Shown here: piece after piece, positions 2,889 through 52,776 of the stretch
Layout: the number at the start of each line of letters is the position of its first letter
Position numbering within the stretch: the stretch's first letter is position 1
Assembly: GCA_964457085.1 (NCBI GenBank)
Contig: CAYWDM010000001.1
Location: 111,690-175,689 of the forward strand
Source: an uncultured Pseudomonadales bacterium
GTDB taxonomy: Bacteria; Patescibacteriota; Microgenomatia; UBA1400; PJMF01
Reading direction: 5' to 3'
DNA: 64,000 nt
Notes under the pieces: model-generated
Seen by the model: only the letters and a program-made list of their open reading frames with translations
Database searches by the model: none
What the model was told of the DNA's origin: nothing
Made by a program: the position numbers and the translations under genes

Positions 2889-4019
2889 ATGTCCCTGACA
2901 TCCGGCTATCGAATTGGCATTGATTGCAGACTGGCGGGAAGTCGTCACGCAGGTATCGGCAGGTATACGGCTAATTTAGTGCGTGAGTTATTACTGACTA
3001 CACCAGATAGCATCACCTGGGTATTATTTTTCTCTGACAAAACCCAGCAAGCTGAAATAGTCGCAATAATTCCCAAAAATGTCGAGGTTGTCATCGCACC
3101 AATACGACACTATTCACTTTCTGAACAGCTGAAAATGCCGGGCATCTTTAAAGCTGCAAAGCTAGATTTGCTGCATGTGCCACATTTTAATATTCCACTC
3201 GCTTACACTGGAAAATTGATCGTCACTATTCATGACTTGTTGTGGCACGAGCAGCGGGGGAGTACTGTTACCACGCTTGCTCCGGCAAAATATTGGTTAA
3301 AGTATTTTTTTTACCATCTAATTGTTTGGAAAGCAGTGCATTCAGCACAAAAAATTCTAGTACCGGCAGCTACAATCGCTGGAACTGTTAGCCGATACTA
3401 TCCTGGTGCAAAACAAAAAATCGTGATAACACCAGAAGGAATTGATCAATCATTCCTTGATACTTTGATTGGAAAAAGACGACAGCCACAGTCAGATGCA
3501 CTTGAACTAGTCTATACAGGGTCACTCTATCCACATAAAAATATCGAGGTAGTTCTACAACTATTGCAACAGTATCCTGATATTCACCTAACTATTGTTG
3601 GTTCAAGATCTGTTTTTCGTGACCAAGTCGAACAACGATGCAAGGAGCTATCTGTACAATACCAAGTGACATTTGCGGGCTATTTACCAGATGAGAAACT
3701 CTGTGATCTATACTCAGTATCGGATGTACTCATTCAACCGTCACTTTCTGAGGGTTTTGGACTTACAGGCTTAGAAGCACTCTCGCAGAACCTGCCAGTC
3801 ATTGTTTCTGATATTCCGATTTTTCGAGAAATTTATCAAAATGCAGCAGTCTTCTTCAATCCGCATGATCCAGTCTCTGTCTATGAGGCACTACTTGAAA
3901 CACTTAAAAAACAAACGGAGCTGTTGCAGAATTCCAAAAAATTATTGCCAAGGTATTCCTGGAAATTGATGGCCAATCAGACTTTGAACACCTACCTGCA
4001 AATACTAGAAAAAAAGTAA
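2889..4019 (+). CDS. GT4-family glycosyltransferase
   Basis: EGFGLTGLEALSQNLPVIVSD, the GT4 EX7E-type C-terminal motif. Confidence 0.8.
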   Translation: MSLTSGYRIGIDCRLAGSRHAGIGRYTANLVRELLLTTPDSITWVLFFSDKTQQAEIVAIIPKNVEVVIAPIRHYSLSEQLKMPGIFKAAKLDLLHVPHFNIPLAYTGKLIVTIHDLLWHEQRGSTVTTLAPAKYWLKYFFYHLIVWKAVHSAQKILVPAATIAGTVSRYYPGAKQKIVITPEGIDQSFLDTLIGKRRQPQSDALELVYTGSLYPHKNIEVVLQLLQQYPDIHLTIVGSRSVFRDQVEQRCKELSVQYQVTFAGYLPDEKLCDLYSVSDVLIQPSLSEGFGLTGLEALSQNLPVIVSDIPIFREIYQNAAVFFNPHDPVSVYEALLETLKKQTELLQNSKKLLPRYSWKLMANQTLNTYLQILEKK

Positions 4020-17542: not shown

Positions 17543-17618
17543 ATGCTTGATATACCATAATCATCACCTTTTTCACAAGGGGATTTTCACAAGCGAATTA
17601 AAAAGTAGCCTAGTAGCA

Positions 17619-17653
17619 ACAAAAAAGCTGCGTTTTGCGCAGCTTTTTACAAA
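17619..17653. terminator. Palindromic bidirectional terminator (copy 1 of a 35-bp exact repeat)
   Basis: aacaaaaaAGCTGCGttttCGCAGCTttttacaaa: 7-bp perfect stem, TTTT loop, A-run 5' and T-run 3'. Confidence 0.6.
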
Positions 17654-18727: not shown

Positions 18728-18763
18728 AACAAAAAAGCTGCGTTTTGCGCAGCTTTTTACAAA
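18728..18763. terminator. Palindromic bidirectional terminator (copy 2 of the 35-bp exact repeat)
   Basis: Same sequence as 17619-17653. Lies downstream of rpmA. Confidence 0.6.
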
Positions 18764-41786: not shown

Positions 41787-43004
41787 TTAGTAGATCGGAG
41801 TGCTGTTACGCTCCGCATAACTAATTAGCCGCTTGTGAGCAGCCAATGAGCCATCTTTCTCGCCCGTTACAGCCCAGATCTCACCATTGACTAGTGCGAT
41901 CTCAGCTTGCTGAGGGTTTGTGGTAAAGCGCTCAAACCGCCGAGTACGGGTTTGCGATACATCTACCTTTGGATAGGGAGCCATCGGTAAACCGGTGAGC
42001 ACCCACTTCGAGGTGGTACCGCTGTCCATGGTTTCATCCGTGAAAGCGGCCTCGGACGATTTCTTGTCCTTAGCAGCCAACAAAACAGACGAAACTACAG
42101 TCAACGAACGGTCTCCAAAATCCCCAGCCACTCCCAATAGTTCTGAAACATACTGGATAGAGCTGGTATAGATACCGCCTGAGATCATGCCACCTTCAGC
42201 CGCCACAACCGTGGATCGACTGTGTGCCATAACAGCACGGGTAACAGAATCGCAAATAAACACCACATCATATCCTGCTTGTGTAAGTCGACGAGCTCGC
42301 TTCACAGCAAACTCGAAAACCTGCACCTGGATATGCAATGGATCCTCACGAGGAGAAGTGAAGAATTCACCACGCTCAGGACCAACCAGATCCCAAACTT
42401 TTTTGTAATCGGTGAAGTCTTCAGATCTTTCTCCTAGATGAAGAACAATGGGATACAACTTCGCATCTTCTTTCGTAAGACGAAGCAGTGCTTCCCATAA
42501 TGCCAGCAGAACGCTGGTTTTACCACTGCCGCCTGGGGCGGCTAGGTAAATGGACTGGCCTTTGCCAATCGGGGCCAACAAAGTCAGCACCCGCAAAGAC
42601 AAATTGCCAAACTTTTCCACTCTCAAAGGACGAGTGGGATAGTTGGCCCCGAGAAATATACGCTTGTCGCGCAAATCCTCAGCCTCGCCAACGATCCGTG
42701 GCCACGCAGAGACCATTGCTGGATCTGTGCAGCCATTAACCGAGATGATGCTGTCTGGACTCTCGGAACTGAGTTCAACCAAATCGCCTTCTTCCAGATT
42801 CCACCTTAACACCACCGATGGACTAACCACCAGTGAATATTGAGGAGCATTGGGAGATTGCGCTTGGTCAATCAGATGCTGACGCCGGTGAGTTCTGAGT
42901 TTCCCCAGATTTCCCGGTATTAACGTTGTGAGTGGCGGCACGCGTTCCCCGTAAACGAGGACTGCGTTTGGATCCACTCCTTGCTGAAGCACCCATGCTT
43001 TCAA
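41787..43004 (-). CDS. Divergent Rho-family RecA-like ATPase (transcription termination factor Rho homolog)
   Basis: [31 protein letters not shown] versus Rho [40 protein letters not shown] versus [38 protein letters not shown] versus HVQVAEMVIEKAKRLVE..VIILLDSITRL. TTG start with an AGGAGGTG RBS. Higher GC than the surrounding genes. Confidence 0.65.
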   Translation of the reverse strand: [405 protein letters not shown]

Positions 43005-43219
43005 GGTTCACCTCCTGAGTGACTGAATGGGGTTTGACTCACCTCGCCTCTTTTTAAGGCATAGGGGAAAACTTAGTCCTATCAATTAATTTCAATAAGA
43101 CAAACTTTTCCCCTGTGCCAAATAATCCTTATTTGGCTGTTAAAGAACAAACACAACAAGAGAGCTTGGCCAACGGGCAAGGGGTGGAAAACCACCCCAA
43201 GCCCGAAGACACAAACTAA

Positions 43220-44401
43220 CTAACTTTCACGGAATGCGGGCCAGGGGTTTTCCATGGCTGGTGCATCGGTAGATGCAGGGATGACGGATTGACCATTTCT
43301 TCGATCCCAAATTCCAGGATCATCAGCTGTCAACAAGTCAATTACTTTGCCATCCTTTCCAACTTTTGCCCTTAGGGCCTCAAGATCAGCCACTTTGAAA
43401 GTGCCTGTTCTTAGGTTTCCTTGGAGCCCAACCTTGATTTTCTCTGCTTCCACAGCCAGAGCTCTAATGATTTGATTGGTCGACATGCACCAATCAACGC
43501 CACCAATGATGTTTGTGGCAAACTGCATGGCACTGGGAATGATTAGATACCCTGTGCCACTCTTCGAGTATAACAAGCGATTCCAGAGGTCCTGGAGGGC
43601 ACCAGTTCTACTCGGTCCCATGTTTTTGGTTAATCTGTCGATATCAGTTCCAGCCAATAACTCTTTGCAAGGAATTAGATCACCAAATGAAGCATCTGGA
43701 TCTTTCCCAAACAAAGTTGGCCTGACATTTATCTCCACCATAAACATGTTTGTGATTACCAACCGAGAATGCCGAGATTCCCAAGCTTTCACCCAATAGA
43801 TCAAGGGTAAAATGAAAAATGGCACTACGAAACCAACTAGAAAGTACCAGTAGTTCATTTCTGGCACCACTTCGCTGATCAACCCGGTGGTAACAATGAC
43901 ATAGAATCTATAGAGAAACTCTACAATGACGACCAATAGTCCGAAGACAAAGCCGGCACCAACAGCAGCCAGACTGGATGAGAACGTTACCCAACCAGCT
44001 GTTGCCATCAAATTCTTGTCAATGACAAGTTGGAGCTTTTCTCCTTCCTGCATAACCCAAGGCATAGAGCTTGGGAGCCACAGAAAATCAAAAACTTTGG
44101 AGATTAGAGGCTCTACTACCCGAACTATCCAGGCAATCAGAAACCAGAAAATCACCAATCCTACCACCGTCCAACCAATAGCTAGTAGGATCCTTACGAT
44201 GTTTTCCACACGTACCTCCTTTGTGGGTGGTACTCCTCTTACTTCCATACTCGCGAGAGTTGGGGAGCAGATGAAGCACCATGAATGAAGTGGATTGACA
44301 CCGGTATCCTTCAAGAGGACACCGTCGGCCGTTCTGCTCCCTTTTTCGGAGCTAGGGCTTTGTCTCATTGTTTTTTTGTCACTGCATGTCATGGTTGACA
44401 T
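43220..44401 (-). CDS. Polytopic membrane protein (hypothetical)
   Basis: Four TM helices then a ~200 aa soluble domain. The first 40 codons lie inside the 446-bp repeat and are identical to those of the ORF at 46192-48261. The true start may be an internal Met (MEVRGVPP). Confidence 0.45.
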   Translation of the reverse strand: MSTMTCSDKKTMRQSPSSEKGSRTADGVLLKDTGVNPLHSWCFICSPTLASMEVRGVPPTKEVRVENIVRILLAIGWTVVGLVIFWFLIAWIVRVVEPLISKVFDFLWLPSSMPWVMQEGEKLQLVIDKNLMATAGWVTFSSSLAAVGAGFVFGLLVVIVEFLYRFYVIVTTGLISEVVPEMNYWYFLVGFVVPFFILPLIYWVKAWESRHSRLVITNMFMVEINVRPTLFGKDPDASFGDLIPCKELLAGTDIDRLTKNMGPSRTGALQDLWNRLLYSKSGTGYLIIPSAMQFATNIIGGVDWCMSTNQIIRALAVEAEKIKVGLQGNLRTGTFKVADLEALRAKVGKDGKVIDLLTADDPGIWDRRNGQSVIPASTDAPAMENPWPAFRES

Positions 44402-44727
44402 GTCTTGAGAAACAGTGACACAGAGCCCTAGCTATATATCTGAAAAAGAAGAGTGGAGAAACAAACCAAAAAAGAAGTTATCAGTTTTTTTATTTTAATA
44501 AAAACATCTTTGTTTTTATATATCTCTCTTGTTGTGTTGTTAAAGATCTACCAAGCAAAACAGTTGAGAACTATACGCAAACAGAGACGCAGTGTGATTT
44601 GTGTTATACAGATCACGGTCTCTGTTGCACCTCTCAACCGATTATATTTACTTGGTCACTGTTTCGACTTCGAGAAGTCTCATCAGGTCTAGGCAAAACC
44701 TAGACGACAGTGCACAACAAGAGAGTG
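44282..44727. repeat. 446-bp direct repeat, copy 1 (100% identical to 48142-48587)
   Basis: Verified block by block. Contains a hammerhead ribozyme, an AT-rich putative promoter, nested hairpins around a start codon, and 40 shared codons. Confidence 0.9.
44657..44712 (-). ncRNA. Type III hammerhead ribozyme (copy 1)
   Basis: Minus-strand RNA 5'-CACUGUC|GUCUAGG-UUUUG-CCUAGAC-CUGAUGA-GACUUCUCGAAGUC-GAAA-CAGUG-3'. Closed stem I (7 bp), complete CUGAUGA core, stem II closed by G10.1-C11.1, GAAA, and a 6-bp stem III with a GUC cleavage triplet. Confidence 0.8.
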
Positions 44728-44767
44728 TTGCTTGGACGGAGGGAGAAGAGCACAATGCCCAACTCCC

Positions 44768-46189
44768 TCACGGTCCAATCAACGCCGGTGCCGCACTAGT
44801 CGGTACCGTTTCAAAGATGAGTAAATCACCAGATTCTGACCACTTTGCAGTGATCTCATGGTCAGTAGTATTCTCAATCACTAAATCCGCACTCTGACAA
44901 TTTATGCCCACCGTGAAGATAGGATAAAATGGATAGAAAGTGTGAGAAGGAGCTTTGGCTACTACAAGACCTGGTACTTGGCTTGCCCAGTTTTTGATGA
45001 CTGAAGCATTGGCACAAATACCACCAGCACTGATGTTTGCCGCGAATTTATATTGATCCCAGCCGGTCTCGTTCGTCTGTTGACAGAACGACCAAGTGCC
45101 ATTGGCTGGAACTACTATTGTCTGGTTTAAAGTTGACCAAAGCGCTACGTTATAGGCTTGGCCATCTGCAACCGGGACATCGCGGGTGAGATTGATTGTC
45201 AATTGCCCTGAACCAGGTACGAGTGTACCTCCAGGTAGACCAGCAGCTGCATTACCAGCTTCGGCCTGCCAATTCTCTGGCAAGAGACCCATCTCTTGGA
45301 AAAACTGAATGCTTGCTGACTGGAAAAATGCATATTCTCCAGGAGAACCAAATGATAGGCTGGTCTGGACATCAAAACCGCCCAAACCTCGACCGGCATA
45401 AATATCAGCCGTCGCTACCAACTGACGTCGGTAGGGCTCATCGTGGTTCCACCCATAAAGAACCTTCACTCTTTCCTCTACAGTCATGTCAGAGCGATAA
45501 CCCATGCGATTTACTTCATAGGCCATTGCAAAAAACATGACTTTCTGGTCCCAGAAGTCACAAGATTTGACAACCGGGTCAGTTGAGGTTTGAAGCGCCA
45601 CCTTACAGATTCGCCAAGCAGTGGTGGGAATAAACCCACCAGCACCAAGCTCACCTGCAGACGCGTGCCCCAACCAATCTGAATAATCTGACTTGATGTA
45701 TTGAGCTGCCACTGGGTTATGAGCCCGAATGTCCTGCTCTTTCCATAAAGCCAATAACTCCAGGCCAGCTTCCTTTTCTTTAGCAGCTATGAGGTTTGTG
45801 TTCCCCATTGCTGATGCAAGACCAGGCGAGCTACCCAGATTTGTTCCGCCTGCACTTTCGCCGCTATGGAGAGACTGCAAAATGGCGAGGTCAAGCTGAC
45901 CTTTCCACTGAGCGTTCACCCATGTGATTGCGGCTTGAGCGTCAGCCACAGCTGTCGGATCAAGTCCGATCGCCTTTACCGTCACCTCGTCGGTGGCAGA
46001 GAGCGAGTAGGAGAGTTCCGACCGAACCCCGAGGATCTGAGCCATCATGCGCTCATAACCCTCGGGGTTGGTATCATGTTGGTACAACAGGTAGACGAAT
46101 CCACCCATCGGAACAACACAGCTGACGACTGTGGCCACCACGATCGCAAGCAAGATGAGTTTTTTTGATAAGTTACGATGTCGCCTCAC
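44768..46189 (-). CDS. Membrane-anchored cell-wall-active protein with a lytic-transglycosylase-like region and a C-terminal VanW-like domain
   Basis: N-terminal TM helix. SGESAGG...AGELGAGGFIPTTAW resembles the SLT ES / AGAxGLMQ motifs. The C-terminus GGICANASVIKNWASQVPGLVV...YPFYP..G.DL.IEN resembles the VanW domain. Confidence 0.45.
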   Translation of the reverse strand: MRRHRNLSKKLILLAIVVATVVSCVVPMGGFVYLLYQHDTNPEGYERMMAQILGVRSELSYSLSATDEVTVKAIGLDPTAVADAQAAITWVNAQWKGQLDLAILQSLHSGESAGGTNLGSSPGLASAMGNTNLIAAKEKEAGLELLALWKEQDIRAHNPVAAQYIKSDYSDWLGHASAGELGAGGFIPTTAWRICKVALQTSTDPVVKSCDFWDQKVMFFAMAYEVNRMGYRSDMTVEERVKVLYGWNHDEPYRRQLVATADIYAGRGLGGFDVQTSLSFGSPGEYAFFQSASIQFFQEMGLLPENWQAEAGNAAAGLPGGTLVPGSGQLTINLTRDVPVADGQAYNVALWSTLNQTIVVPANGTWSFCQQTNETGWDQYKFAANISAGGICANASVIKNWASQVPGLVVAKAPSHTFYPFYPIFTVGINCQSADLVIENTTDHEITAKWSESGDLLIFETVPTSAAPALIGP

Positions 46190-46191
46190 GG

Positions 46192-48261
46192 CTAATCGCT
46201 CCTACCTAAACTCTCTACCAACACAGCTGGCAGGTGAACCTGCAAATGTGCGAGTAATTCTTGCTCGGATTCGGCTTTCCCAAATCGTCTAGGATCGTAC
46301 ACGTCAGCCATTTGATGGCCATCGTTTCCCAAACGAACGAGAATACTGCAAGACTCTACGAAACCGGCTGGGAAGTCTTTCACCAGCTCTTCCACCGAGT
46401 GAACGGTGAAATAGATATGTTGCCGATCCTTACGGACCGTATCTACAGCTTCGCGCATCTTGAGACGCGCACGTGCACCCAGTTGAGGACCGGTTTGGCC
46501 CAAAAATGAGTCTGCTGCTGATGGAAAACTCACCATGTCATCGAAAACGACATGGATTGTCCTACCACTCTCAACAGTCCACAAAGCCCACGCCTGAGTT
46601 AGTGCCTCGTAAAAGGCAAGAACCCAATTGTAGTACCGTAGGCTGTTGACCTTAGGTCTAATTGCAAGTGGCAACCAGCTTTCACCAGTTGTTCTCCACT
46701 TTTCTGCCAGTTTCCTGACAAAATCTTGAGCCTTTGCCGAATCCTTACGGAACAGCTCCTGTTCAAGATCAATGGCAGTTCTGTCGCCCTCTCCCTGATT
46801 GACATCAGGAAGATCTATTTCAACGACTTGACCACCAAAGGCTTTCGACCATTTATGACTCCCCTCCTTATCAGCGCTTTTCAACTGAACAAATACAACG
46901 TCAGCTGATTGCTGCAACATATAGAATGCTGCAAGCGTTGATTTTCCCGTCCCAGATGGACCCTCGAAAATCGTTGAGGGATACCTGGAGGCGTTCAAGA
47001 AAAAGGGTTGCTCCGGTTTTGCCAATTTACCGATCATGGCATAACCGAATGAGTGAGCTGTCTTCGGGGAGACAGATTCAGCGAGTTTGGCAAGTAGCTT
47101 CTCCGGCTTTTTAAGCAGGAAAGGTTTCCAAGCAGGTGGGGGTTGGTGACCTACCATGAAGCCAAAGTGAGCCTCACGGACTGCATTCCCAGTCAACCGC
47201 TCCCAACCTGGACCAATCAAGTCAAGCCTATCTTGAAGTGAATCAAGATTTGTTTGACCATTACTCGCAACCGCACTTTCTGCTCGAATAACTAACCGAA
47301 CATAAGCACGATTTTCAACTCTTTCGAGATGAAGCAGCACGTCAACATTGAGTGCCAATAGCTCATCGAGCTGGCGCTGCAATTCTGAGAGCTGTTTTTC
47401 AGGGTCTTTTTCCAGAGTTGCTATCACCCCAGTCCAAAACCCTAGCGCCTTACTACCTAGAAGCACATCGCTCATTCGCCAGCGGATAGCCAGCGGTGCA
47501 GCAATTAACTCGGGTTGTAAGGTGCCTGTGTACGTCATCGAAGACAGGTCAGCGTTATTTCTGCCATACTGACTTCGATTAAGCGTTGCCCGGACGAAGT
47601 TTCCTGATTCATGGTACGAAACCAGGTGACCTTCCGCAAAACGGCGCTGCTTATCTAAATGACGGCGAATGTTCAACCATGGTGCCCAAAGAACCAATTC
47701 TCTACCAAAAGGTTTTGAACCGGTGGGCACAGCCCATTCACTGACAGAAGCCAGGAATTCGGCGTATGGTTGGATCGCCTGCTTGCGTAGTTGCGCCTGG
47801 CGCAACATCTCCTTAAACGTCCCAGTGTCTTTCGGCACAGCACGAAAAAGAAGAGTAAACTCAGGCAACAATCTTGTCAGCTGCGCCAGATCAGGAACAC
47901 CACGGTTAAAATACACCGCCGCATTCCATCCCTTTTGAGCCTCATGACTGTCACTAACGTACCTACGGGAAAATCCCGCAGCGCCACCATCCAATGATGC
48001 TATCTGAAGATCGATCATTTGTCTTGATTCGACCAACTGATTTCTCACTGGTACTGGCAATTGAGAACCTAACGTGGCCACAGTACCTCCTTGTGGGGGT
48101 ACCTCGTCTCGCTCCTTTTGAGGGGAACAAAACAAAGTACCTGAATGAAGTGGATTGACACCGGTATCCTTCAAGAGGACACCGTCGGCCGTTCTGCTCC
48201 CTTTTTCGGAGCTAGGGCTTTGTCTCATTGTTTTTTTGTCACTGCATGTCATGGTTGACAT
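46192..48261 (-). CDS. P-loop NTPase, VirB4/TraC(ConE)-like ATPase candidate
   Basis: Walker A IFEGPSGTGKSTLAAF in the C-terminal half. Walker B-like HVVFDDM ~130 aa later. 689 aa. The first 40 codons are shared with the 43220-44401 ORF through the repeat. The true start may be internal. Confidence 0.45.
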   Translation of the reverse strand: MSTMTCSDKKTMRQSPSSEKGSRTADGVLLKDTGVNPLHSGTLFCSPQKERDEVPPQGGTVATLGSQLPVPVRNQLVESRQMIDLQIASLDGGAAGFSRRYVSDSHEAQKGWNAAVYFNRGVPDLAQLTRLLPEFTLLFRAVPKDTGTFKEMLRQAQLRKQAIQPYAEFLASVSEWAVPTGSKPFGRELVLWAPWLNIRRHLDKQRRFAEGHLVSYHESGNFVRATLNRSQYGRNNADLSSMTYTGTLQPELIAAPLAIRWRMSDVLLGSKALGFWTGVIATLEKDPEKQLSELQRQLDELLALNVDVLLHLERVENRAYVRLVIRAESAVASNGQTNLDSLQDRLDLIGPGWERLTGNAVREAHFGFMVGHQPPPAWKPFLLKKPEKLLAKLAESVSPKTAHSFGYAMIGKLAKPEQPFFLNASRYPSTIFEGPSGTGKSTLAAFYMLQQSADVVFVQLKSADKEGSHKWSKAFGGQVVEIDLPDVNQGEGDRTAIDLEQELFRKDSAKAQDFVRKLAEKWRTTGESWLPLAIRPKVNSLRYYNWVLAFYEALTQAWALWTVESGRTIHVVFDDMVSFPSAADSFLGQTGPQLGARARLKMREAVDTVRKDRQHIYFTVHSVEELVKDFPAGFVESCSILVRLGNDGHQMADVYDPRRFGKAESEQELLAHLQVHLPAVLVESLGRSD

Positions 48262-48587
48262 GTCTTGAGAAACAGTGACACAGAGCCCTAGCTATATATC
48301 TGAAAAAGAAGAGTGGAGAAACAAACCAAAAAAGAAGTTATCAGTTTTTTTATTTTAATAAAAACATCTTTGTTTTTATATATCTCTCTTGTTGTGTTGT
48401 TAAAGATCTACCAAGCAAAACAGTTGAGAACTATACGCAAACAGAGACGCAGTGTGATTTGTGTTATACAGATCACGGTCTCTGTTGCACCTCTCAACCG
48501 ATTATATTTACTTGGTCACTGTTTCGACTTCGAGAAGTCTCATCAGGTCTAGGCAAAACCTAGACGACAGTGCACAACAAGAGAGTG
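48142..48587. repeat. 446-bp direct repeat, copy 2
   Basis: Identical to 44282-44727 and offset by 3860 bp. Confidence 0.9.
48517..48572 (-). ncRNA. Type III hammerhead ribozyme (copy 2)
   Basis: Identical 56-nt sequence to copy 1. Confidence 0.8.
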
Positions 48588-48625
48588 AGAGAAGGTGGGC
48601 ATCTTACGACGCCCACCTCTTCACA
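48588..48625 (-). terminator. Terminator-like hairpin downstream of the 99-aa gene
   Basis: GGTGGGC..(10 nt)..GCCCACC followed on the minus strand by uucucuc. Confidence 0.4.
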
Positions 48626-48629
48626 TTTA

Positions 48630-48929
48630 CTACTGCTTTAATCTCCACTCTTCGTCTTCATGTCCTTTACCGCTTTCTTCACACTGACGCATATAGCGTC
48701 GATTTTTAATCCACCCAGGAATTCGAGTGAGCATGAAAATTACGGCAATAACTCCAAACACTTGGTACGTATATTTGGAATAATTAAACATGAGAACAAT
48801 CACGGCGCCACCAACCATAGCGATCACTTTCGTAATCAATGGCAATCCGTGCGAGCGATCGAACCACTCGTAGCGAGATCTTTTTAGCCAACGCTTGATT
48901 CCTCGAATCACTGGAGATGACGTGTTCAT
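48630..48929 (-). CDS. Small two-TM membrane protein (VirB3-like by size, topology and position; hypothetical)
   Basis: 99 aa with two hydrophobic helices. Lies immediately upstream (in operon order) of the VirB4-like ATPase. Confidence 0.4.
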   Translation of the reverse strand: MNTSSPVIRGIKRWLKRSRYEWFDRSHGLPLITKVIAMVGGAVIVLMFNYSKYTYQVFGVIAVIFMLTRIPGWIKNRRYMRQCEESGKGHEDEEWRLKQ

Positions 48930-50338
48930 GGTAGATCATCTCCATCGCTAATCACGATCGTATCCTTACCGGTAAACGGGTCGGATGCTGACTGCGAAGC
49001 GGAATCATCGAAATTGCTGGACAAATCACTTGGCCCTGTAGGCAGCACGTCGTCATCTGACACCAAAGTGTCTGAGACTATTGTTGCTGTAGTTGTGCCA
49101 ACTTGAGTGATTGTCCCTTCGATTTGCGTTTGGGTAGTGGGCAACTCATCCAGCTTGTCCACATCGTCACTGACGACAATCGTAGCCGCATCAACCGAAG
49201 CTGAACGACTCTTCTCATCACCGGTTTCGATTACGGGCAGCTCATCTTCTAAATCATGAGAGTCTGCCCCGTAAACCACTTGCTTAGGTGAATCCGAAAA
49301 TTCATCGTTTGCTGTTTCCTTAACCTGACCATCGACGACTCCGCTAGTTGCAGAGAGAAGACCGTCATTGGGAGGATAAGCATAGATGACATCAGAGTCG
49401 CCTTGTGGACCGTTGCCACCACTGCCACCACCGTCCACACCATCATCCGAAGAATTAGGCGTGAAAGGAAAAGGCACGAATGTTGCTGTGCTAGAAGCAT
49501 CAGCTCCAGTACCTTCGGCGGGCAGTTCGTCTTGAGCTGATTCTTGCTCGTCAGCGCTTTCACTTGGCATATAAACAATCGCCAAGATCGGCGGCAAAAA
49601 GTAAGTAACCAACCCCAGAATTAGCATTGTCACCAGATAAATCAGGTTAAACGCAACAAAGCTGCTCACGATCGCATTATCCGGACGGATGCTGCCAAGC
49701 AATTCTGTCACATTTTTGACCACTTCTGGTGCCAGTATCCAACCAGCAATACTCGCCGCAGCAACCCCAAGAGGCCGCCACGACCAAGTCATTATCGCGA
49801 CCGCAACACAGATGATGAGCACCACTGAGGTGACAATCTGCATCGCAGCATGAAATAACGGCCAGTTGAGAATGAACGACAACGCCCATATGAAACTGAG
49901 TGGGTTGGTGTCACCGACTGGAATCGGAAACGTCCAACCCAACTGAGTAGCAATCCAGCTGAGCGTGAGCGCCTCAGGCCAAGTAGCTCGGCCGAGTTGC
50001 TCAATGGCTGGTAAGATATAAGGGAGTATTCCTACCCCAAACATCAAACCAAACATTTTACGGACTTTACCCCAATTTTGTTTCTTCAAGCCAGAAATAA
50101 TGCCGAGTAAAGCAATCGGCACAAGGCACTGAAGAACAGAGAGCAACCCTTTGGCTGCAGATTGGGATAGATTGATGAACGCCATGCTTTTTAAGGGCAC
50201 CGCGTCATCAATTGCCCGATCGATTGCGCCACATCCCGAAAGAAATAGCATCGAAAGGGTTAGAATGATCGCGACCCTGAGTTTCATGGTCGCACTTCTA
50301 CTTGATACTGGAGACGAGGTTTGTGATGAGCAAACCAA
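48926..50338 (-). CDS. Polytopic membrane lipoprotein with a long acidic disordered C-terminal tail (VirB6/ConG-like candidate)
   Basis: Lipobox LSGC after a signal peptide. At least six TM helices. ~170 aa D/E/S/T-rich C-terminus. Likely start at the internal ATG near 50287 (MKLRVAIIL). Confidence 0.45.
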   Translation of the reverse strand: MVCSSQTSSPVSSRSATMKLRVAIILTLSMLFLSGCGAIDRAIDDAVPLKSMAFINLSQSAAKGLLSVLQCLVPIALLGIISGLKKQNWGKVRKMFGLMFGVGILPYILPAIEQLGRATWPEALTLSWIATQLGWTFPIPVGDTNPLSFIWALSFILNWPLFHAAMQIVTSVVLIICVAVAIMTWSWRPLGVAAASIAGWILAPEVVKNVTELLGSIRPDNAIVSSFVAFNLIYLVTMLILGLVTYFLPPILAIVYMPSESADEQESAQDELPAEGTGADASSTATFVPFPFTPNSSDDGVDGGGSGGNGPQGDSDVIYAYPPNDGLLSATSGVVDGQVKETANDEFSDSPKQVVYGADSHDLEDELPVIETGDEKSRSASVDAATIVVSDDVDKLDELPTTQTQIEGTITQVGTTTATIVSDTLVSDDDVLPTGPSDLSSNFDDSASQSASDPFTGKDTIVISDGDDLP

Positions 50339-50546
50339 TCCCCTGTGTCAGTGGACCGCTGGTGATGATATCCTTGGCTGCAAAAGCTGAAAGCGCCAGG
50401 ACAAACCACATCGCGACGACGACAGAAGTGTCGCCCCAAGAGGTCATCTTCTTGACCTTATTCACAGACTCGGGGAACACAGTGACCACACCAAACACTA
50501 TCATGGCGCTGATCAGAGCCGTACCGAAGTTGATTAAAGCTTGCAT
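50298..50546 (-). CDS. Small membrane protein (82 aa)
   Basis: AGGAG RBS 6 nt upstream of the ATG. Two TM helices. Preceded by conserved structured leader A. Confidence 0.45.
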   Translation of the reverse strand: MQALINFGTALISAMIVFGVVTVFPESVNKVKKMTSWGDTSVVVAMWFVLALSAFAAKDIITSGPLTQGIGLLITNLVSSIK

Positions 50547-50571
50547 GTTTACTCCTTATTTCTGAATGGTT

Positions 50572-50664
50572 GAATGGATTGACGATTGGAACAACGACGG
50601 GCGTCTTGCGACGCCGTGAGGATGCCCCATCTAGGGGCGGACAATTTGTGCGATATGCACCTCC
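50572..50664 (-). promoter_or_regulatory. Conserved structured 5' leader, copy A
   Basis: Minus-sense GGAGGUGCAUAUCGCAC..CCCCUAGAUGGGG..GGCGUCGCAAGACGCC (GNRA-like loop), then RBS and ATG. ~85% identical to copy B. Confidence 0.45.
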
Positions 50665-50950
50665 GTTAAGGATGGGATGTAGTGCAACGAACAGCTTTGC
50701 CCTTTTTTTGGGCTTGGGCCTAATAAACACTCATAAAAAAATAAGCGCTCATTGAGCCCAAGCCACGACAACCAACAGCTATATAAGAAGTTTAGTAAAT
50801 TCTCTTGTTGTGCTGTTAATGAGCAAGGCGACAAGTAACCTATTACAATAACAAGTTCTTATCGAAATACCCAGGCCAAATATGGCCAGATAACAACACA
50901 ATTATGCGGTTATCCAGCAATACTTTAAAAAGTAGGGGAATGAGTATTCA

Positions 50951-50984
50951 TTCAATTATGAGAGCGAAGTTTCCTTCGCCCTCA
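50951..50984 (-). terminator. Rho-independent terminator of the 153-aa gene
   Basis: 15-bp near-perfect stem ATTATGAGAGCGAAG / CTTCGCCCTCATAAT with a T-rich tail on the minus strand. Confidence 0.5.
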
Positions 50985-51006
50985 TAATTTCTGAATGATT
51001 GGTGGC

Positions 51007-51468
51007 TTATGTCGTGGTGTCTACGGACAGAGTCGACGGAGCGACGGGATAGGCAAACATCGGCGCCATCTCCGCATCACTCATGCCGCATGCTTTTGCC
51101 ATAATGCGTGCAGAATTAGCAGACGCTTTATTGATTTGGCTTCGAGTGTTAATGCGGAGAACTTCCACATCGCCAATCATGCCAACCAAAAAACCATCCT
51201 TTAACTCTACACGGACAAAACACATGCCCTTTGGGGCAAGCAGGCGAGTGTACAACTTACGTGCGAAAATCTCGCGCGAAACAGCTGTGCTCAACTTCAA
51301 GCTCATCTTGGGCGACTCGTAATCCCAGATGACTTCCCCACCGGGGTCGTCAGTGCTGAAACCACAAACAAACAACAACTGCGCTTCATTAGTGCAGATG
51401 ATCGCAAAACCGTCTTCTGGCATGCGAATCGAACGTGACCCTTTCGAGGCCGGGGCTTGTTTAGCCAT
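51007..51468 (-). CDS. Hypothetical protein (153 aa)
   Basis: GAAGGAG RBS then ATG at 51468 (MAKQAPASKG). Preceded by leader copy B. Confidence 0.5.
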   Translation of the reverse strand: MAKQAPASKGSRSIRMPEDGFAIICTNEAQLLFVCGFSTDDPGGEVIWDYESPKMSLKLSTAVSREIFARKLYTRLLAPKGMCFVRVELKDGFLVGMIGDVEVLRINTRSQINKASANSARIMAKACGMSDAEMAPMFAYPVAPSTLSVDTTT

Positions 51469-51493
51469 GACTGATACTCCTTCTAACTTGAAT

Positions 51494-51584
51494 GAATGGA
51501 TTGACAACGAGCAACGACGGGCGCCTTATGACGCCGTGAGGGTACCCCATCTAGGGGCGGACAATTTGTGCGATATGCACCTCC
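51494..51584 (-). promoter_or_regulatory. Conserved structured 5' leader, copy B
   Basis: Same three-hairpin arrangement as copy A, with a compensatory U-A to U-G change in the third stem. Confidence 0.45.
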
Positions 51585-52082
51585 AAAAAAAACAGAATGT
51601 AATACGGGCATGCTCTTTTTTTGAGCTGGGGCCAAAGCTACTAACAGGTATGACTATTAACAGCTTTGACCTCAGCTCTTATACTCATTCCCCTGTTAAG
51701 GTGCGAAACGACAAAAAAATTGCAACGCAAATGCTGCAAATATTTATATCGTTTTGCTATCAAATCTAAACAAAAAGTATCCTATATATATCAGTAGAAA
51801 AACATTACAGGACGTGTTATACATCTTCAATATGTAAAAGTCAATATACTTTGATAGAGTTCAACTCGATAAAAAATACAAAAAAACCTTCTCCCTCTTG
51901 CGAGAGAGCAGGCGATGCCACAAATGGAACGATATTTTGGCAGTCTGTTGAGCGGCATTCTGACAAACGCATTCACTTCAGTTCATCTCGAATTCTCGAT
52001 CAACCTTGTCAACAAATAACAAACAACTATGAGTTTTTACTCCAGACACAATTGCATTAGAAAAACTAATCCATACCTGAAT

Positions 52083-52445
52083 TTAATACATTTTTCCACC
52101 AACCACAGCAAAAACCTTATCAGGCCTAATCAATACACAGTCACCCTCGCCATCTGGGACTCCAAGCGTCAAACACTCAGAAATAAAAGGACCAATCTGA
52201 CGTGGTGGAAAATTTACCACTCCTAGAACTAGGGTATTCAATAATTGATCTGGCGTATAGTGTTTTACCAATTGAGCACTAGATTTCTTGGTTCCAATTT
52301 CAGCACCAAAATCTATTAACAGTTTGTATGCTGGCTTCCGAGCTTCAGGAAATTCTTTAACCTCTACAATCTTTCCAACTCGAACGTCAATTTTTTGGAA
52401 ATCTGAATATTCAATTTGCGAGAATGGTAGGGTAGAAACAGACAT
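52083..52445 (-). CDS. csaA: tRNA-binding protein CsaA/Trbp111 (EMAP-fold)
   Basis: KIDVRVGKIVEVKEFPEARKPAYKLLIDFG, the tRNA-binding OB fold. Confidence 0.8.
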   Translation of the reverse strand: MSVSTLPFSQIEYSDFQKIDVRVGKIVEVKEFPEARKPAYKLLIDFGAEIGTKKSSAQLVKHYTPDQLLNTLVLGVVNFPPRQIGPFISECLTLGVPDGEGDCVLIRPDKVFAVVGGKMY

Positions 52446-52607
52446 AACTATTCCTTAATTAACAAAAATAAAATCTATCTACTCATATCTTACCAGATTA
52501 AAAAAACTAACTACAAGTCTGGTGAAAAGTAGTGAATAGATTAATATAGTATTGTTAAAGCCGTAGTTATTCTAACAAACGAGCACTATGTATCGATGTA
52601 TACTAAT

Positions 52608-52776
52608 ACTACCTTCGGGGTAGGTTGATCTTGCGTAACCGCGAGAAAATACCAATCGGTGGTACACTCCACGAGTCTTGCTTGCGAGACATGATCTGGT
52701 GAAACTCCAGAAGCGACCGTATAGTCGGGTATAAAGAAGGTACTCAAAAAACCACGCTATTTTGCGTGGTGTTTTG
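52608..52776 (+). promoter_or_regulatory. FMN riboswitch (RFN element) with intrinsic terminator
   Basis: P1 UACCUUC/GAAGGUA. 5' UUCGGGGUAGGUUGA..ACCG..CGGUGGUA and 3' UGGUGAAACUCCAGAAGCGACCGUAUAGUCGGGUAUAAAGAAGG, closely matching RFN UGGUGAAAUUCCAAAGCCGACAGUGAAAGUCUGGAUGGGAGAAGG. Terminator CCACGC/GCGTGG + UUUU at 52752-52776. CCCCGAAG at 52782-89 is complementary to the P1 5' strand, and GGGGCAU pairs across the SD. Confidence 0.75.

Follow-up and report, generated by a model that had tools for sequence, protein, structure and literature searches.

The locus discussed here raises the question of what a 446 bp sequence does in front of two different genes, and why it is the same in front of both. 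In the window (the whole 64,000-nucleotide stretch that was analysed, from a genome termed W), positions 44282–44727 and 48142–48587 are direct repeats 3860 bp apart. By exact-match extension they are 100% identical, a figure that may hide a few differences, since short-read assemblers can merge near-identical repeats. Alignment also bears out the 446 bp repeat of an earlier, preliminary description of this DNA, and chance cannot account for a perfect repeat of this length. On the minus strand, copy A is found 5′ of the gene for a 329-amino-acid membrane protein, termed gene A, and copy B is 5′ of the gene for a VirB4-like ATPase. The reading favoured here, which the sequence comparisons make quite probable, is that the repeat is a non-coding leader module headed by a hammerhead ribozyme that would cut read-through RNA, with complementary boxes that would pair to close or mark transcription units, and with copies that evolve in concert.

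Repeat edges and gene starts

The preliminary description had the DNA just outside the repeat boundary still alignable. This is so on the 3′ side, where alignment between the copies continues beyond the identical tract to a common AAGGAGG and GTG, but not on the 5′ side, where no alignable sequence was found between the two copies. The accompanying proposal, that old paralogous regions have been homogenised by gene conversion, is borne out: the two regions are old paralogous leaders. The flanks differ and target-site duplications are not found at the repeat edges. A MITE or insertion sequence origin was rejected, as the repeat ends have no terminal inverted repeats and there is no target duplication.

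At the amino acid level, open reading frames 43220–44401 and 46192–48261 (minus strand) do have a common start, MSTMTCSDKKTMRQSPSSEKGSRTADGVLLKDTGVNPLHS, and split at the repeat edge. The repeat had been proposed to supply two unrelated proteins with one promoter and with 40 genuine codons at their N-termini, perhaps a tag, leader peptide or secretion signal. Both open reading frames open from the same ATG, both linkers (72 and 60 nt) are in frame, and one public annotation begins both proteins at M12 (P0001, P0005). In addition, the upstream frame of W is open in both copies, and all three segments are stop-free in only 1.4% of shuffles. However, for both genes the homologues begin at the internal GTG or ATG, and protein conservation sets in there; the homologues of gene A are 331–332 amino acids in length. 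L002 and L004 display an in-frame TAA two codons 5′ of their ATG. The W codons M1 and M4 are within a W-specific 22-nt apical insertion that is missing from L008 and L001; these two relatives have GTG in place of M12. Relative to W the frame is shifted in L008, and it differs over SPSSEKG. In the comparison with related genomes, the frame of the 40 codons is not conserved even in the closest relatives, whereas the conservation of the region follows RNA base pairing. A shared N-terminus is thus very improbable, and the secretion tag or leader peptide finds no support in orthologues, where neither reading frame nor peptide is conserved. An N-terminal extension might just exist in the W lineage alone, where the frame is open.

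From the homologue starts, translation of gene A most likely begins at AAGGAGGU and its GTG (44207–44221, GTG 44209–44207, minus strand), and that of the ATPase at AAGGAGGU and the GTG at 48081–48079 (48079–48092, minus strand). A strong AAGGAGG precedes the internal GTG at 44209 and at 48081. The start codons of two genes are thereby corrected; at least one public annotation runs them into the leader.

The leader itself is ∼300 nt in length, has covarying hairpins, and runs to the Shine-Dalgarno sequence and GTG of its gene. The nested hairpin that had been noted around the putative ATG, with GCUAGGGCU and AGCCCUAGC as its base, is real. This hairpin, termed P-a (44351–44432, minus strand; 48211–48292 in copy B), contains the spurious ATGs; its base covaries in relatives, and among its RNAalifold pairs are some with compensatory changes as well as G-U pairs. 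A small hairpin, CUCC-GAAAAAG-GGAG, whose loop is A-rich, is found at 44337–44351 (48197–48211 in copy B), and its stem covaries between lineages as CUCC/GGAG, UCCC/GGGA, GCCC/GGGC and GCUC/GAGC. Leader hairpin 3 (44303–44323; 48163–48183 in copy B, both minus strand) occupies a position where every lineage has a hairpin, but of unrelated sequence. The fold z-score is −9.2. Conservation follows base pairing, and the fallback idea of the preliminary description, a structured leader instead of a true N-terminus, holds.

Hammerhead ribozyme and complementary boxes

Each copy of the repeat displays, in order on the minus strand, an R-box, a predicted hammerhead, a long predicted hairpin, an F-box and the leader. 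The hammerhead and the complementary R/F boxes are absent from the preliminary description of the repeat.

The hammerhead emerged only once relatives had been aligned and a stretch of 126 nt was searched. At Rfam gathering thresholds no family was found for the repeat in the whole window, and at E ≤ 5 on 43000–52700 only microRNA-type noise appeared. In this 126-nt stretch, Rfam RF00008 matches the copy A hammerhead over the full model at 30.7 bits (E 2.8e-5), which is under the Rfam gathering threshold of 48.5 bits. A custom model scores 100.8 bits and finds exactly two copies within the window, and in relatives the copies are at the same site. A group I intron, for which there was no Rfam signal, and a retron were both considered and rejected.

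Both repeats carry a complete type III hammerhead that is predicted to be self-cleaving. It is at 44657–44712 in copy A (minus strand), with a predicted cut after C17 at 44706 and a 3′ product from 44705, and at 48517–48572 in copy B (minus strand), with a predicted cut after 48566 and a 3′ product from 48565. The catalytic core of the RF00008 match, CUGAUGA, GAAA and GUC, is intact. All seven distinct sequences have the core, as CUGAUGA (CUGAAGA in L002 and L004), CGAAAC and GUC or GUA. Minimum-free-energy folds contain the three helices, of which I and II are loop-closed and III is open. The 18 hammerhead pairs are each 98–100% paired and all three helices covary among the seven sequences. 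Compensatory changes on both sides are found in 10 of the 18 pairs, a number that none of 500 shuffles reaches, and slid controls collapse. The G-U pairs are compatible with the minus (gene-sense) strand only. The loop sequences of the hammerhead are UUUUG/UGAAAG and CUCG/CUCA.

Directly 5′ of hammerhead helix III in copy A is the 13-nt R-box R3, CUCUCUUGUUGUG (44713–44725, minus strand), which complements the F-box over 13 bp and is preceded by a GC hairpin (44739–44769, minus strand). R2 (48573–48585, minus strand) is preceded by a GC hairpin at 48594–48617. R4 (43152–43164, minus strand) is found after gene A, where it follows a GC hairpin at 43181–43198 and there is no ribozyme. Between hammerhead and F-box, folding gives a long hairpin (44550–44656, minus strand; 48410–48516 in copy B); every lineage has a hairpin in this position, with differing sequence. 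F-box F3, UCUUUAACAACACAACAAGAGAG, is at 44524–44546 (minus strand), and 22 nt of it are invariant in five lineages; the invariant part includes UCUUUAAC. F2 is at 48384–48406 and F1 at 50801–50823, both on the minus strand; F1 heads the leader of an 82-amino-acid gene, a leader that has no ribozyme. A different pair serves a 166-amino-acid gene. On the same strand, the F0 box AGGGGAAUGAGUAU (51681–51694) is 5′ of this gene and the R0 box AUACUCAUUCCCCU (50934–50947) is 3′ of it. R0 complements F0 perfectly over 14 nt, and L002 and L004 display a compensatory G:C to A:U change in F0/R0.

The R/F helix has 13 pairs that are 100% paired. Changes on both sides occur in 12 of the 13, compared with 0 of 500 shuffles. 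F/R boxes bracket each transcription unit of the VirB4-like cluster, and this is also the case in relatives that have no ribozyme. As F1–F3 and R2–R4 share one sequence, local pairing (an R-box with the next F-box) and long-range bracket pairing both fit those units.

Might the boxes instead act as DNA sites, as operators or promoter elements to which a cluster regulator binds, with the repeat a duplicated promoter-operator and the ribozyme only trimming read-through RNA? The core of the F-box hardly varies among lineages with ATPases of only 28–30% identity; its UUAACA is like a −35 hexamer, with TATAAA 17 nt on in W, and the DNA after the box is A/T-rich. However, the lineages have no −10 element in common, and a consensus promoter scan shows no excess (10 found, 12.7 expected) and no conserved promoter within the repeat, where the preliminary description had placed one. 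In L018, L016, L022 and L002, changes in the box are matched by changes in the inverted partner, which keeps the two complementary. The partners are at opposite ends of each unit, and the wholly different complementary pair F0/R0 does the same for the unit of the 166-amino-acid gene. DNA sites are therefore an unlikely explanation, and boxes that would pair in the RNA are preferred.

Concerted evolution and the gene cluster

Within a genome, the identity of the two copies extends for 446 bp in W, 469 bp in L002, 426 bp in both L004 and L005, and 102 bp or more in L018, whereas between genomes the repeats are ∼77% identical or less and the borders of the tract vary by lineage. Short contigs also stop precisely where the repeat ends. 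As this pattern is found in every relative with two copies, it points to concerted evolution, and the within-genome identity is evidently maintained by gene conversion, on the basis of these sequence comparisons. The locus provides a clean case of intergenic RNA elements that gene conversion keeps identical in several lineages.

Two hammerheads in the same orientation flank the ATPase and hydrolase genes in W, L002, L004 and L005. L019 has a single copy. L016, L021 and L022 keep boxes without a ribozyme, L022 having exactly F1, R2, F2 and R3; this indicates that the ribozyme is dispensable for the architecture.

Direct repeats could also be recombination substrates that delete, excise or amplify the 3.86-kb segment of ATPase and hydrolase genes, resulting in phase or copy-number variation, with the RNA features secondary. 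The L008 contig joins a 100-amino-acid gene, one element and the gene A homologue directly, the L018 contig is unit-length with identical 102-nt ends, and identity is upheld in every two-copy lineage. Yet the L008 and L018 patterns are the usual assembler output at exact repeats, long contigs of three lineages have the intact two-copy arrangement, and L019 has but one copy. The ribozyme core, covarying hairpins and box complementarity are also left unexplained. Recombination as the primary role is improbable, compared with a leader module maintained in concert.

The repeat had no match by BLAST to phage and plasmid records, and two DNA patterns had none in viral contigs. A protein-pattern scan for the ATPase found no relative in reference genomes, and a profile search of a 5.8-billion-protein index gave no new members. 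Scans with 20-mers of reference-genome and metagenome collections revealed one true relative, L008; L009–L014 were rejected as chance 20-mer matches inside unrelated genes.

These results bear on the question of mobility. The form resembles that of plant retrozymes, where direct repeats each have a type III hammerhead (PMC6155905), and the repeats might be the LTR-like ends of an element recently inserted around the ATPase genes. But deep lineages share the same gene order and element positions, the repeat edges lack target-site duplications, the phage, plasmid, viral and reference-genome collections hold no copies, and core machinery genes are in the internal segment. A mobile element of this type is extremely unlikely.

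The cluster includes units for the 166-amino-acid protein, the 82-amino-acid protein, the VirB4-like ATPase with a hydrolase, and the 329-amino-acid membrane protein, and it is secretion-like; its last gene encodes a divergent homologue of Rho. It is chromosomal and syntenic, and adjoins the genes for Rho, S6, SSB and S18. The ATPase sequence has no match in Pfam and NCBIfam. The AlphaFold2 model from 59 sequences (pLDDT 91.5; an earlier model from four sequences gave 45) displays a two-domain VirB4 fold, with TrwK/VirB4 of R388 as the best Foldseek matches (E 2e-14). The gene 3′ of copy B is thus a VirB4-like ATPase by its modelled fold.

W, L002 and L004 share a conserved sigma-70-like promoter 5′ of the first unit, and a conserved terminator. 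The GC hairpins that precede the R-boxes have no clear U tracts, and the ribozymes are on one strand with the flanking genes; together with the single conserved promoter, this points, though only indirectly, to co-transcription. Most transcripts might be terminated at these hairpins.

Proposed RNA processing and known systems

The most likely function of the repeat, as predicted from its structures, is self-cleavage of read-through transcripts to produce unit mRNAs with defined, structured ends. Transcription would start at the sigma-70-like promoter 5′ of the first unit and pass the weak GC hairpins of the cluster. The ribozyme would then cleave the resulting read-through transcript 3′ of C 44706 and C 48566. 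The upstream mRNA would end 7 nt past its R-box with a 2′,3′-cyclic phosphate, and the downstream mRNA would begin with a 5′-OH, base-paired in helix I. With these cuts, the two downstream units (ATPase plus hydrolase; 329-amino-acid protein) would share an identical leader, structured and insulated. Each unit has an F-box 5′ and an R-box 3′, and these would pair over 12–14 bp and close or mark the unit.

A further proposal is unlikely, namely that the F/R boxes fold every cluster mRNA into a 5′–3′ panhandle. The released 3860-nt virB4-hydrolase RNA, with its 5′-OH at 48565 and 2′,3′-cyclic phosphate at 44706, might then rebuild one complete R/F-clamped hammerhead from its ends. This would allow ligation to a circular mRNA in a bacterium or, short of that, would amount to a new way of maturing mRNA that resembles the rRNA one. 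If so, cross-compatible ends would be one reason for the copies to stay identical.

The role of hammerheads in bacteria is still called an open question (PMC6155905). Here a hammerhead at a fixed position has clear sequence partners, the R/F boxes and identical leaders, and there are natural relatives without the ribozyme. Concrete predictions follow as to the RNA cut sites and which helices matter.

The ribozyme shares with other type III hammerheads (RF00008) the three helices, the core CUGAUGA ... GAAA and the GUC/GUA cleavage site. It differs in that helix III runs into the R/F helix of 13 bp and a three-way junction that includes a ∼80–105-nt hairpin, and in being within a conserved leader of 420–470 nt.

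The glmS ribozyme is a self-cleaving RNA in a 5′ leader, where the product with a 5′-OH could determine what becomes of the mRNA. The present element is likewise a predicted self-cleaving RNA in a 5′ leader, but belongs to another ribozyme class, and no ligand-binding domain was identified in it. In rRNA operons, complementary sequences flank the rRNAs and form processing stems that are cut by RNase III. Here also, complementary sequences flank each unit 5′ and 3′ within a longer precursor; however, the helices are only 12–14 bp, the units are mRNAs, and in some lineages the cut beside the 3′ arm is by a predicted ribozyme. RiboJ, an engineered insulator, consists of the sTRSV hammerhead plus a hairpin in the 5′ UTR. 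Both have a type III hammerhead and then a hairpin 5′ of the ribosome-binding site, and both would strip upstream RNA to leave a context-independent 5′ end. The present element differs in being natural and in having ∼400 nt of extra conserved structure between cut and start codon. RiboJ was used in PMC7536230.

Clustered hammerheads are known in bacterial prophages and mobile DNA, an example being the Agrobacterium tumefaciens trio around ardA (Perreault et al., 2011, PMC3088659). As in those clusters, two ribozymes of the same orientation flank a short gene block, and the expected role is to cut polycistronic RNA. A prophage or mobile context is not seen for the repeat, which is syntenic and has no phage, plasmid or viral matches; it is part of a chromosomal VirB4-like cluster whose gene order is deeply conserved. 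Long repeats identical within a genome, and units bracketed by complementary boxes, also set it apart. The likeness to plant retrozymes (PMC6155905) extends from the type III hammerhead in each direct repeat to the double cleavage, which would free a unit-length RNA with ends able to rebuild one ribozyme. Here, however, the 3.4 kb interior is coding and encodes two proteins, the host is bacterial, and the position is syntenic and non-mobile, with no duplication in the flanks and no dispersed copies found. Compared with all of these systems, the identical composite leader with its bracket helices appears to be new.

Identical repeats and their homologues

The two repeats at 44282-44727 (copy A, ahead of the gene for a 329-amino-acid membrane protein, gene A) and 48142-48587 (copy B, ahead of a VirB4-like ATPase gene) are direct, are identical over 446 bp and are spaced 3860 bp apart; the minus strand carries every gene around them. 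The repeat is a real feature, and its coordinates and hairpin were given correctly in the preliminary description. The 100% identity is an upper estimate, since near-identical repeats can be merged by assemblers.

Homologue contigs from related genomes display a constant gene order: a small gene, a polytopic membrane protein of ~450-640 aa, a ~100-aa gene, a gap, the ATPase, a secreted hydrolase of ~450-480 aa, a further gap, a ~330-aa gene and a Rho-like ATPase. The two gaps are identical to each other over 469 bp in contig L002 and over 426 bp in L004 and L005, and in all three the identical tract ends exactly at the start codon. Between genomes, the element is 77% identical (L002 versus L004) or 67% identical (window versus L001), and alignment is otherwise only patchy. 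The copies are alike within a genome and diverged between genomes, and therefore have been homogenised within each lineage, a pattern that is the signature of gene conversion.

Contig ERZ27256953 k141_213191 (L018), whose ATPase is only 28% identical, is of unit length, with a leader, ATPase, M23 hydrolase and hammerhead. Its ends (1-102 and 3758-3859) are identical over 102 nt; direct repeats on either side are the simplest explanation of its circular look. Both ends of short Logan contigs likewise fall on repeat borders. In contig WBZO01036117.1 (L008), a 100-aa gene, one ribozyme-leader element and a gene-A homologue are joined directly, and the ATPase and hydrolase are skipped; this is either a deletion via repeat recombination or the result of an assembler passing through the repeat. 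The L008 element is a mosaic, with a 5′ domain ~97% like that of the window and a 3′ domain ~95% like that of L001. L008 and L018 are compatible with recombination between the repeats, which may occur as a by-product; that the repeats exist as a recombination substrate is improbable.

Start codons of the two genes

Both mechanical ORFs, 43220-44401 and 46192-48261, have their starts within the repeat and open with 40 codons in common; these had been described, together with a shared promoter/leader, as identical N-termini of two genes. A coding role for these codons is rejected on the basis of homologue starts, an in-frame TAA and a frame difference relative to L008. The ATPase ORF has very few relatives, with five matches in a search of 5.8 billion proteins; three from other genomes are 65%, 49% and 48% identical and 606-646 aa in length. 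Comparison with homologues reveals that protein conservation begins near V61 of the window ORF, where AAGGAGGU precedes a GTG in each of the two window genes (44209 and 48081). L002 and L004 have a TAA in frame two codons upstream of the ATG. In the window ORF, the first and second ATGs fall within a 22-nt hairpin-tip insertion that is missing from L008 and L001; both of these relatives have GTG in place of the third ATG. Across the 'SPSSEKG' stretch, the reading frames of the window and L008 differ. The upstream frame is open in both window copies, as it is in 1.4% of shuffles. This is taken to be fortuitous in a structured, A-rich leader, and a lineage-specific N-terminal extension in the window has only a small remaining probability. 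A shared N-terminal peptide supplied by the repeat is very unlikely. One public annotation (protein records P0001, 678 aa, and P0005, 382 aa) places the starts at the M12 ATG (44368-44366 and 48228-48226), within the leader; these calls are probably ~50 codons too long.

Hammerhead, leader and complementary boxes

In gene sense, the module consists of the terminal GC hairpin of the upstream gene, an R-box (CUCUCUUGUUGUG), a hammerhead, a hairpin of ~80-105 nt present in all lineages with varying sequence, and an F-box (UCUUUAACAACACAACAAGAGAG), 22 nt of which do not vary across five lineages. These are followed by an A/U-rich stretch, hairpin P-a, which holds the spurious ATGs and has the base GCUNGGGC/GCCCNAGC, then a small A5-7-loop hairpin and a third one, the motif CAYUUCAUUCA, a fourth hairpin, and the Shine-Dalgarno sequence and start codon. 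P-a and the A-loop hairpin have many compensatory pairs. The fourth hairpin is outside the identical tract, yet window copies A and B both retain it. The 541-nt region has a fold z-score of -9.2, and the native hammerhead is present in its minimum-free-energy structure. A second related leader pair, 85% identical, is at 50589-50681 and 51509-51601 (minus sense), ahead of 82-aa and 166-aa genes, with GGAGGUGCAUAUCG and two hairpins in common. The L002 counterparts are identical over >110 nt, and therefore this leader class too evolves in concert.

Alignment of lineages revealed the block CUGUC|GUCUAG...CUAGNC-CUGANGAG-NCUUCUCNAAGN-CGAAACAG, a type III hammerhead. It has helix III (CACUGU/ACAGUG), the cleavage triplet GUC, helix I as a 7-bp hairpin, the core CUGAUGA, helix II as a 5-bp hairpin, and then GAAA; cleavage is predicted after 44706 and after 48566. 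The whole Rfam type III model (RF00008) matches with 30.7 bits (E 2.8e-5, 126-nt search), below the gathering score of 48.5. A custom covariance model based on five lineages hits the window at exactly two places (~100 bits each). Its other hits are a pair of copies in each of L002, L004 and L005, a single copy in L008, split copies where the contigs of L001 and L006 end, and, at the corresponding site, diverged hammerheads in L018 (36 bits) and L019 (25 bits). In a comparison of seven distinct sequences, pairing is kept in 98.4% of pair cells and 10 of 18 pairs show both-side changes, pairing and covariation values reached by none of 500 shuffles. The U-G pairs are compatible with the gene-sense strand only.

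The ribozyme core and the compensatory changes together are explained neither by an N-terminal peptide nor by a recombination substrate. The same applies to a duplicated promoter-operator region, which has little probability (no conserved promoter was seen within the repeat), and to a mobile retrozyme-like element, the least probable of the four.

R-box and F-box share 13 nt of complementarity. A further F-box (F1, 50801-50823), with a P-a and A-loop leader and no ribozyme, is upstream of the 82-aa gene, and a further R-box (R4, 43152-43164) is after the 329-aa gene; L002 and L004 have the same layout. A separate pair, F0 (AGGGGAAUGAGUAU, 51681-51694) and R0 (AUACUCAUUCCCCU, 50934-50947), flanks the 166-aa gene. 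It is a perfect complement of different sequence, and in L002 and L004 shows a compensatory G:C to A:U change across ~750 nt. Box ends covary in distant relatives (GAGAG/CUCUC, GAGAU/AUCUC, GAAAA/UUUUC, GAAAG/CUUUC), and in L018 three internal pairs are altered (CACAGCAAGGAA/UUCCUUGCUGUG). Counted jointly, all 13 F/R pairs are paired (100%) and 12 of them have changed on both sides, which none of 500 shuffles equals. Predicted duplexes have -23 to -31 kcal/mol, versus ~-10 for shuffled sequences. Contigs L016, L021 and L022 have boxes and no hammerhead. The L022 set is exactly F1, R2, F2 and R3; all four boxes are accounted for if the leading F of a unit pairs with the trailing R of that unit, whereas two boxes stay without a partner if each R pairs with the F that follows it. 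Thus the bracket seems to be older, with the ribozyme added just 3′ of the R-box in some lineages.

The VirB4-like cluster and relation to known systems

The ATPase (46192-48081, minus) belongs to a rare family, for which a set of 1.84 billion proteins contains only 66 representative clusters. Apart from generic P-loop families, nothing in Pfam or NCBIfam matches it, and all VirB4 models there miss it. [quoted passage not shown] In distant relatives the gene after the ATPase carries Peptidase_M23. The last cluster gene (41787-43004, minus) encodes a divergent Rho homologue, also at this position in L002, L004, L019 and L022; its best solved-structure matches are Rho (E ~1e-24), and it scores far under NCBIfam cut-offs. 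The protein is the housekeeping Rho or, alternatively, an RNA helicase specific to this cluster.

Ahead of F0, the window shares with L002 and L004 a conserved promoter-like TTGACT-17-TATAAC/TATACT and an intrinsic terminator; together they are candidates for control of the whole cluster by attenuation or a riboswitch-type device. In the window (~51845-51705, minus sense) the sigma-70-like promoter, TTGACT-17-TATAAC, is followed by the terminator (51739-51712) and F0. Elsewhere, an FMN riboswitch at 52607-52745 (+; 70.5 bits, over the Rfam gathering score) is upstream of genes from 52813 onward, and two identical 36-nt palindromic, terminator-like sequences (AACAAAAAAGCTGCGTTTTGCGCAGCTTTTTACAAA; 17618-17653 and 18728-18763) are 1110 bp apart with one gene between them.

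The complete covarying hammerhead, the structured leaders, the complementary boxes and the intragenomic identity are established. Read-through transcripts would undergo self-cleavage at the hammerhead, leaving the upstream unit with a 3′ end 7 nt past its R-box and the downstream unit with a 5′-OH nucleotide paired in helix I and the identical leader. With such a start and leader, both units would be insulated from upstream context and controlled alike, and F/R pairing may close or mark each unit.

None of the papers searched contains both 'hammerhead' and 'VirB4'. Three features appear to be undescribed so far: a composite leader (420-470 nt) whose copies stay identical within a genome, complementary boxes at both ends of every unit, and the link of a hammerhead element with a divergent VirB4-like cluster. 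The element itself belongs with the bacterial clustered hammerheads, an already known kind. The mechanism suggested here agrees with the role proposed for these by Perreault et al. (PMC3088659), and it would work in the manner of the engineered ribozyme insulators of synthetic operons.
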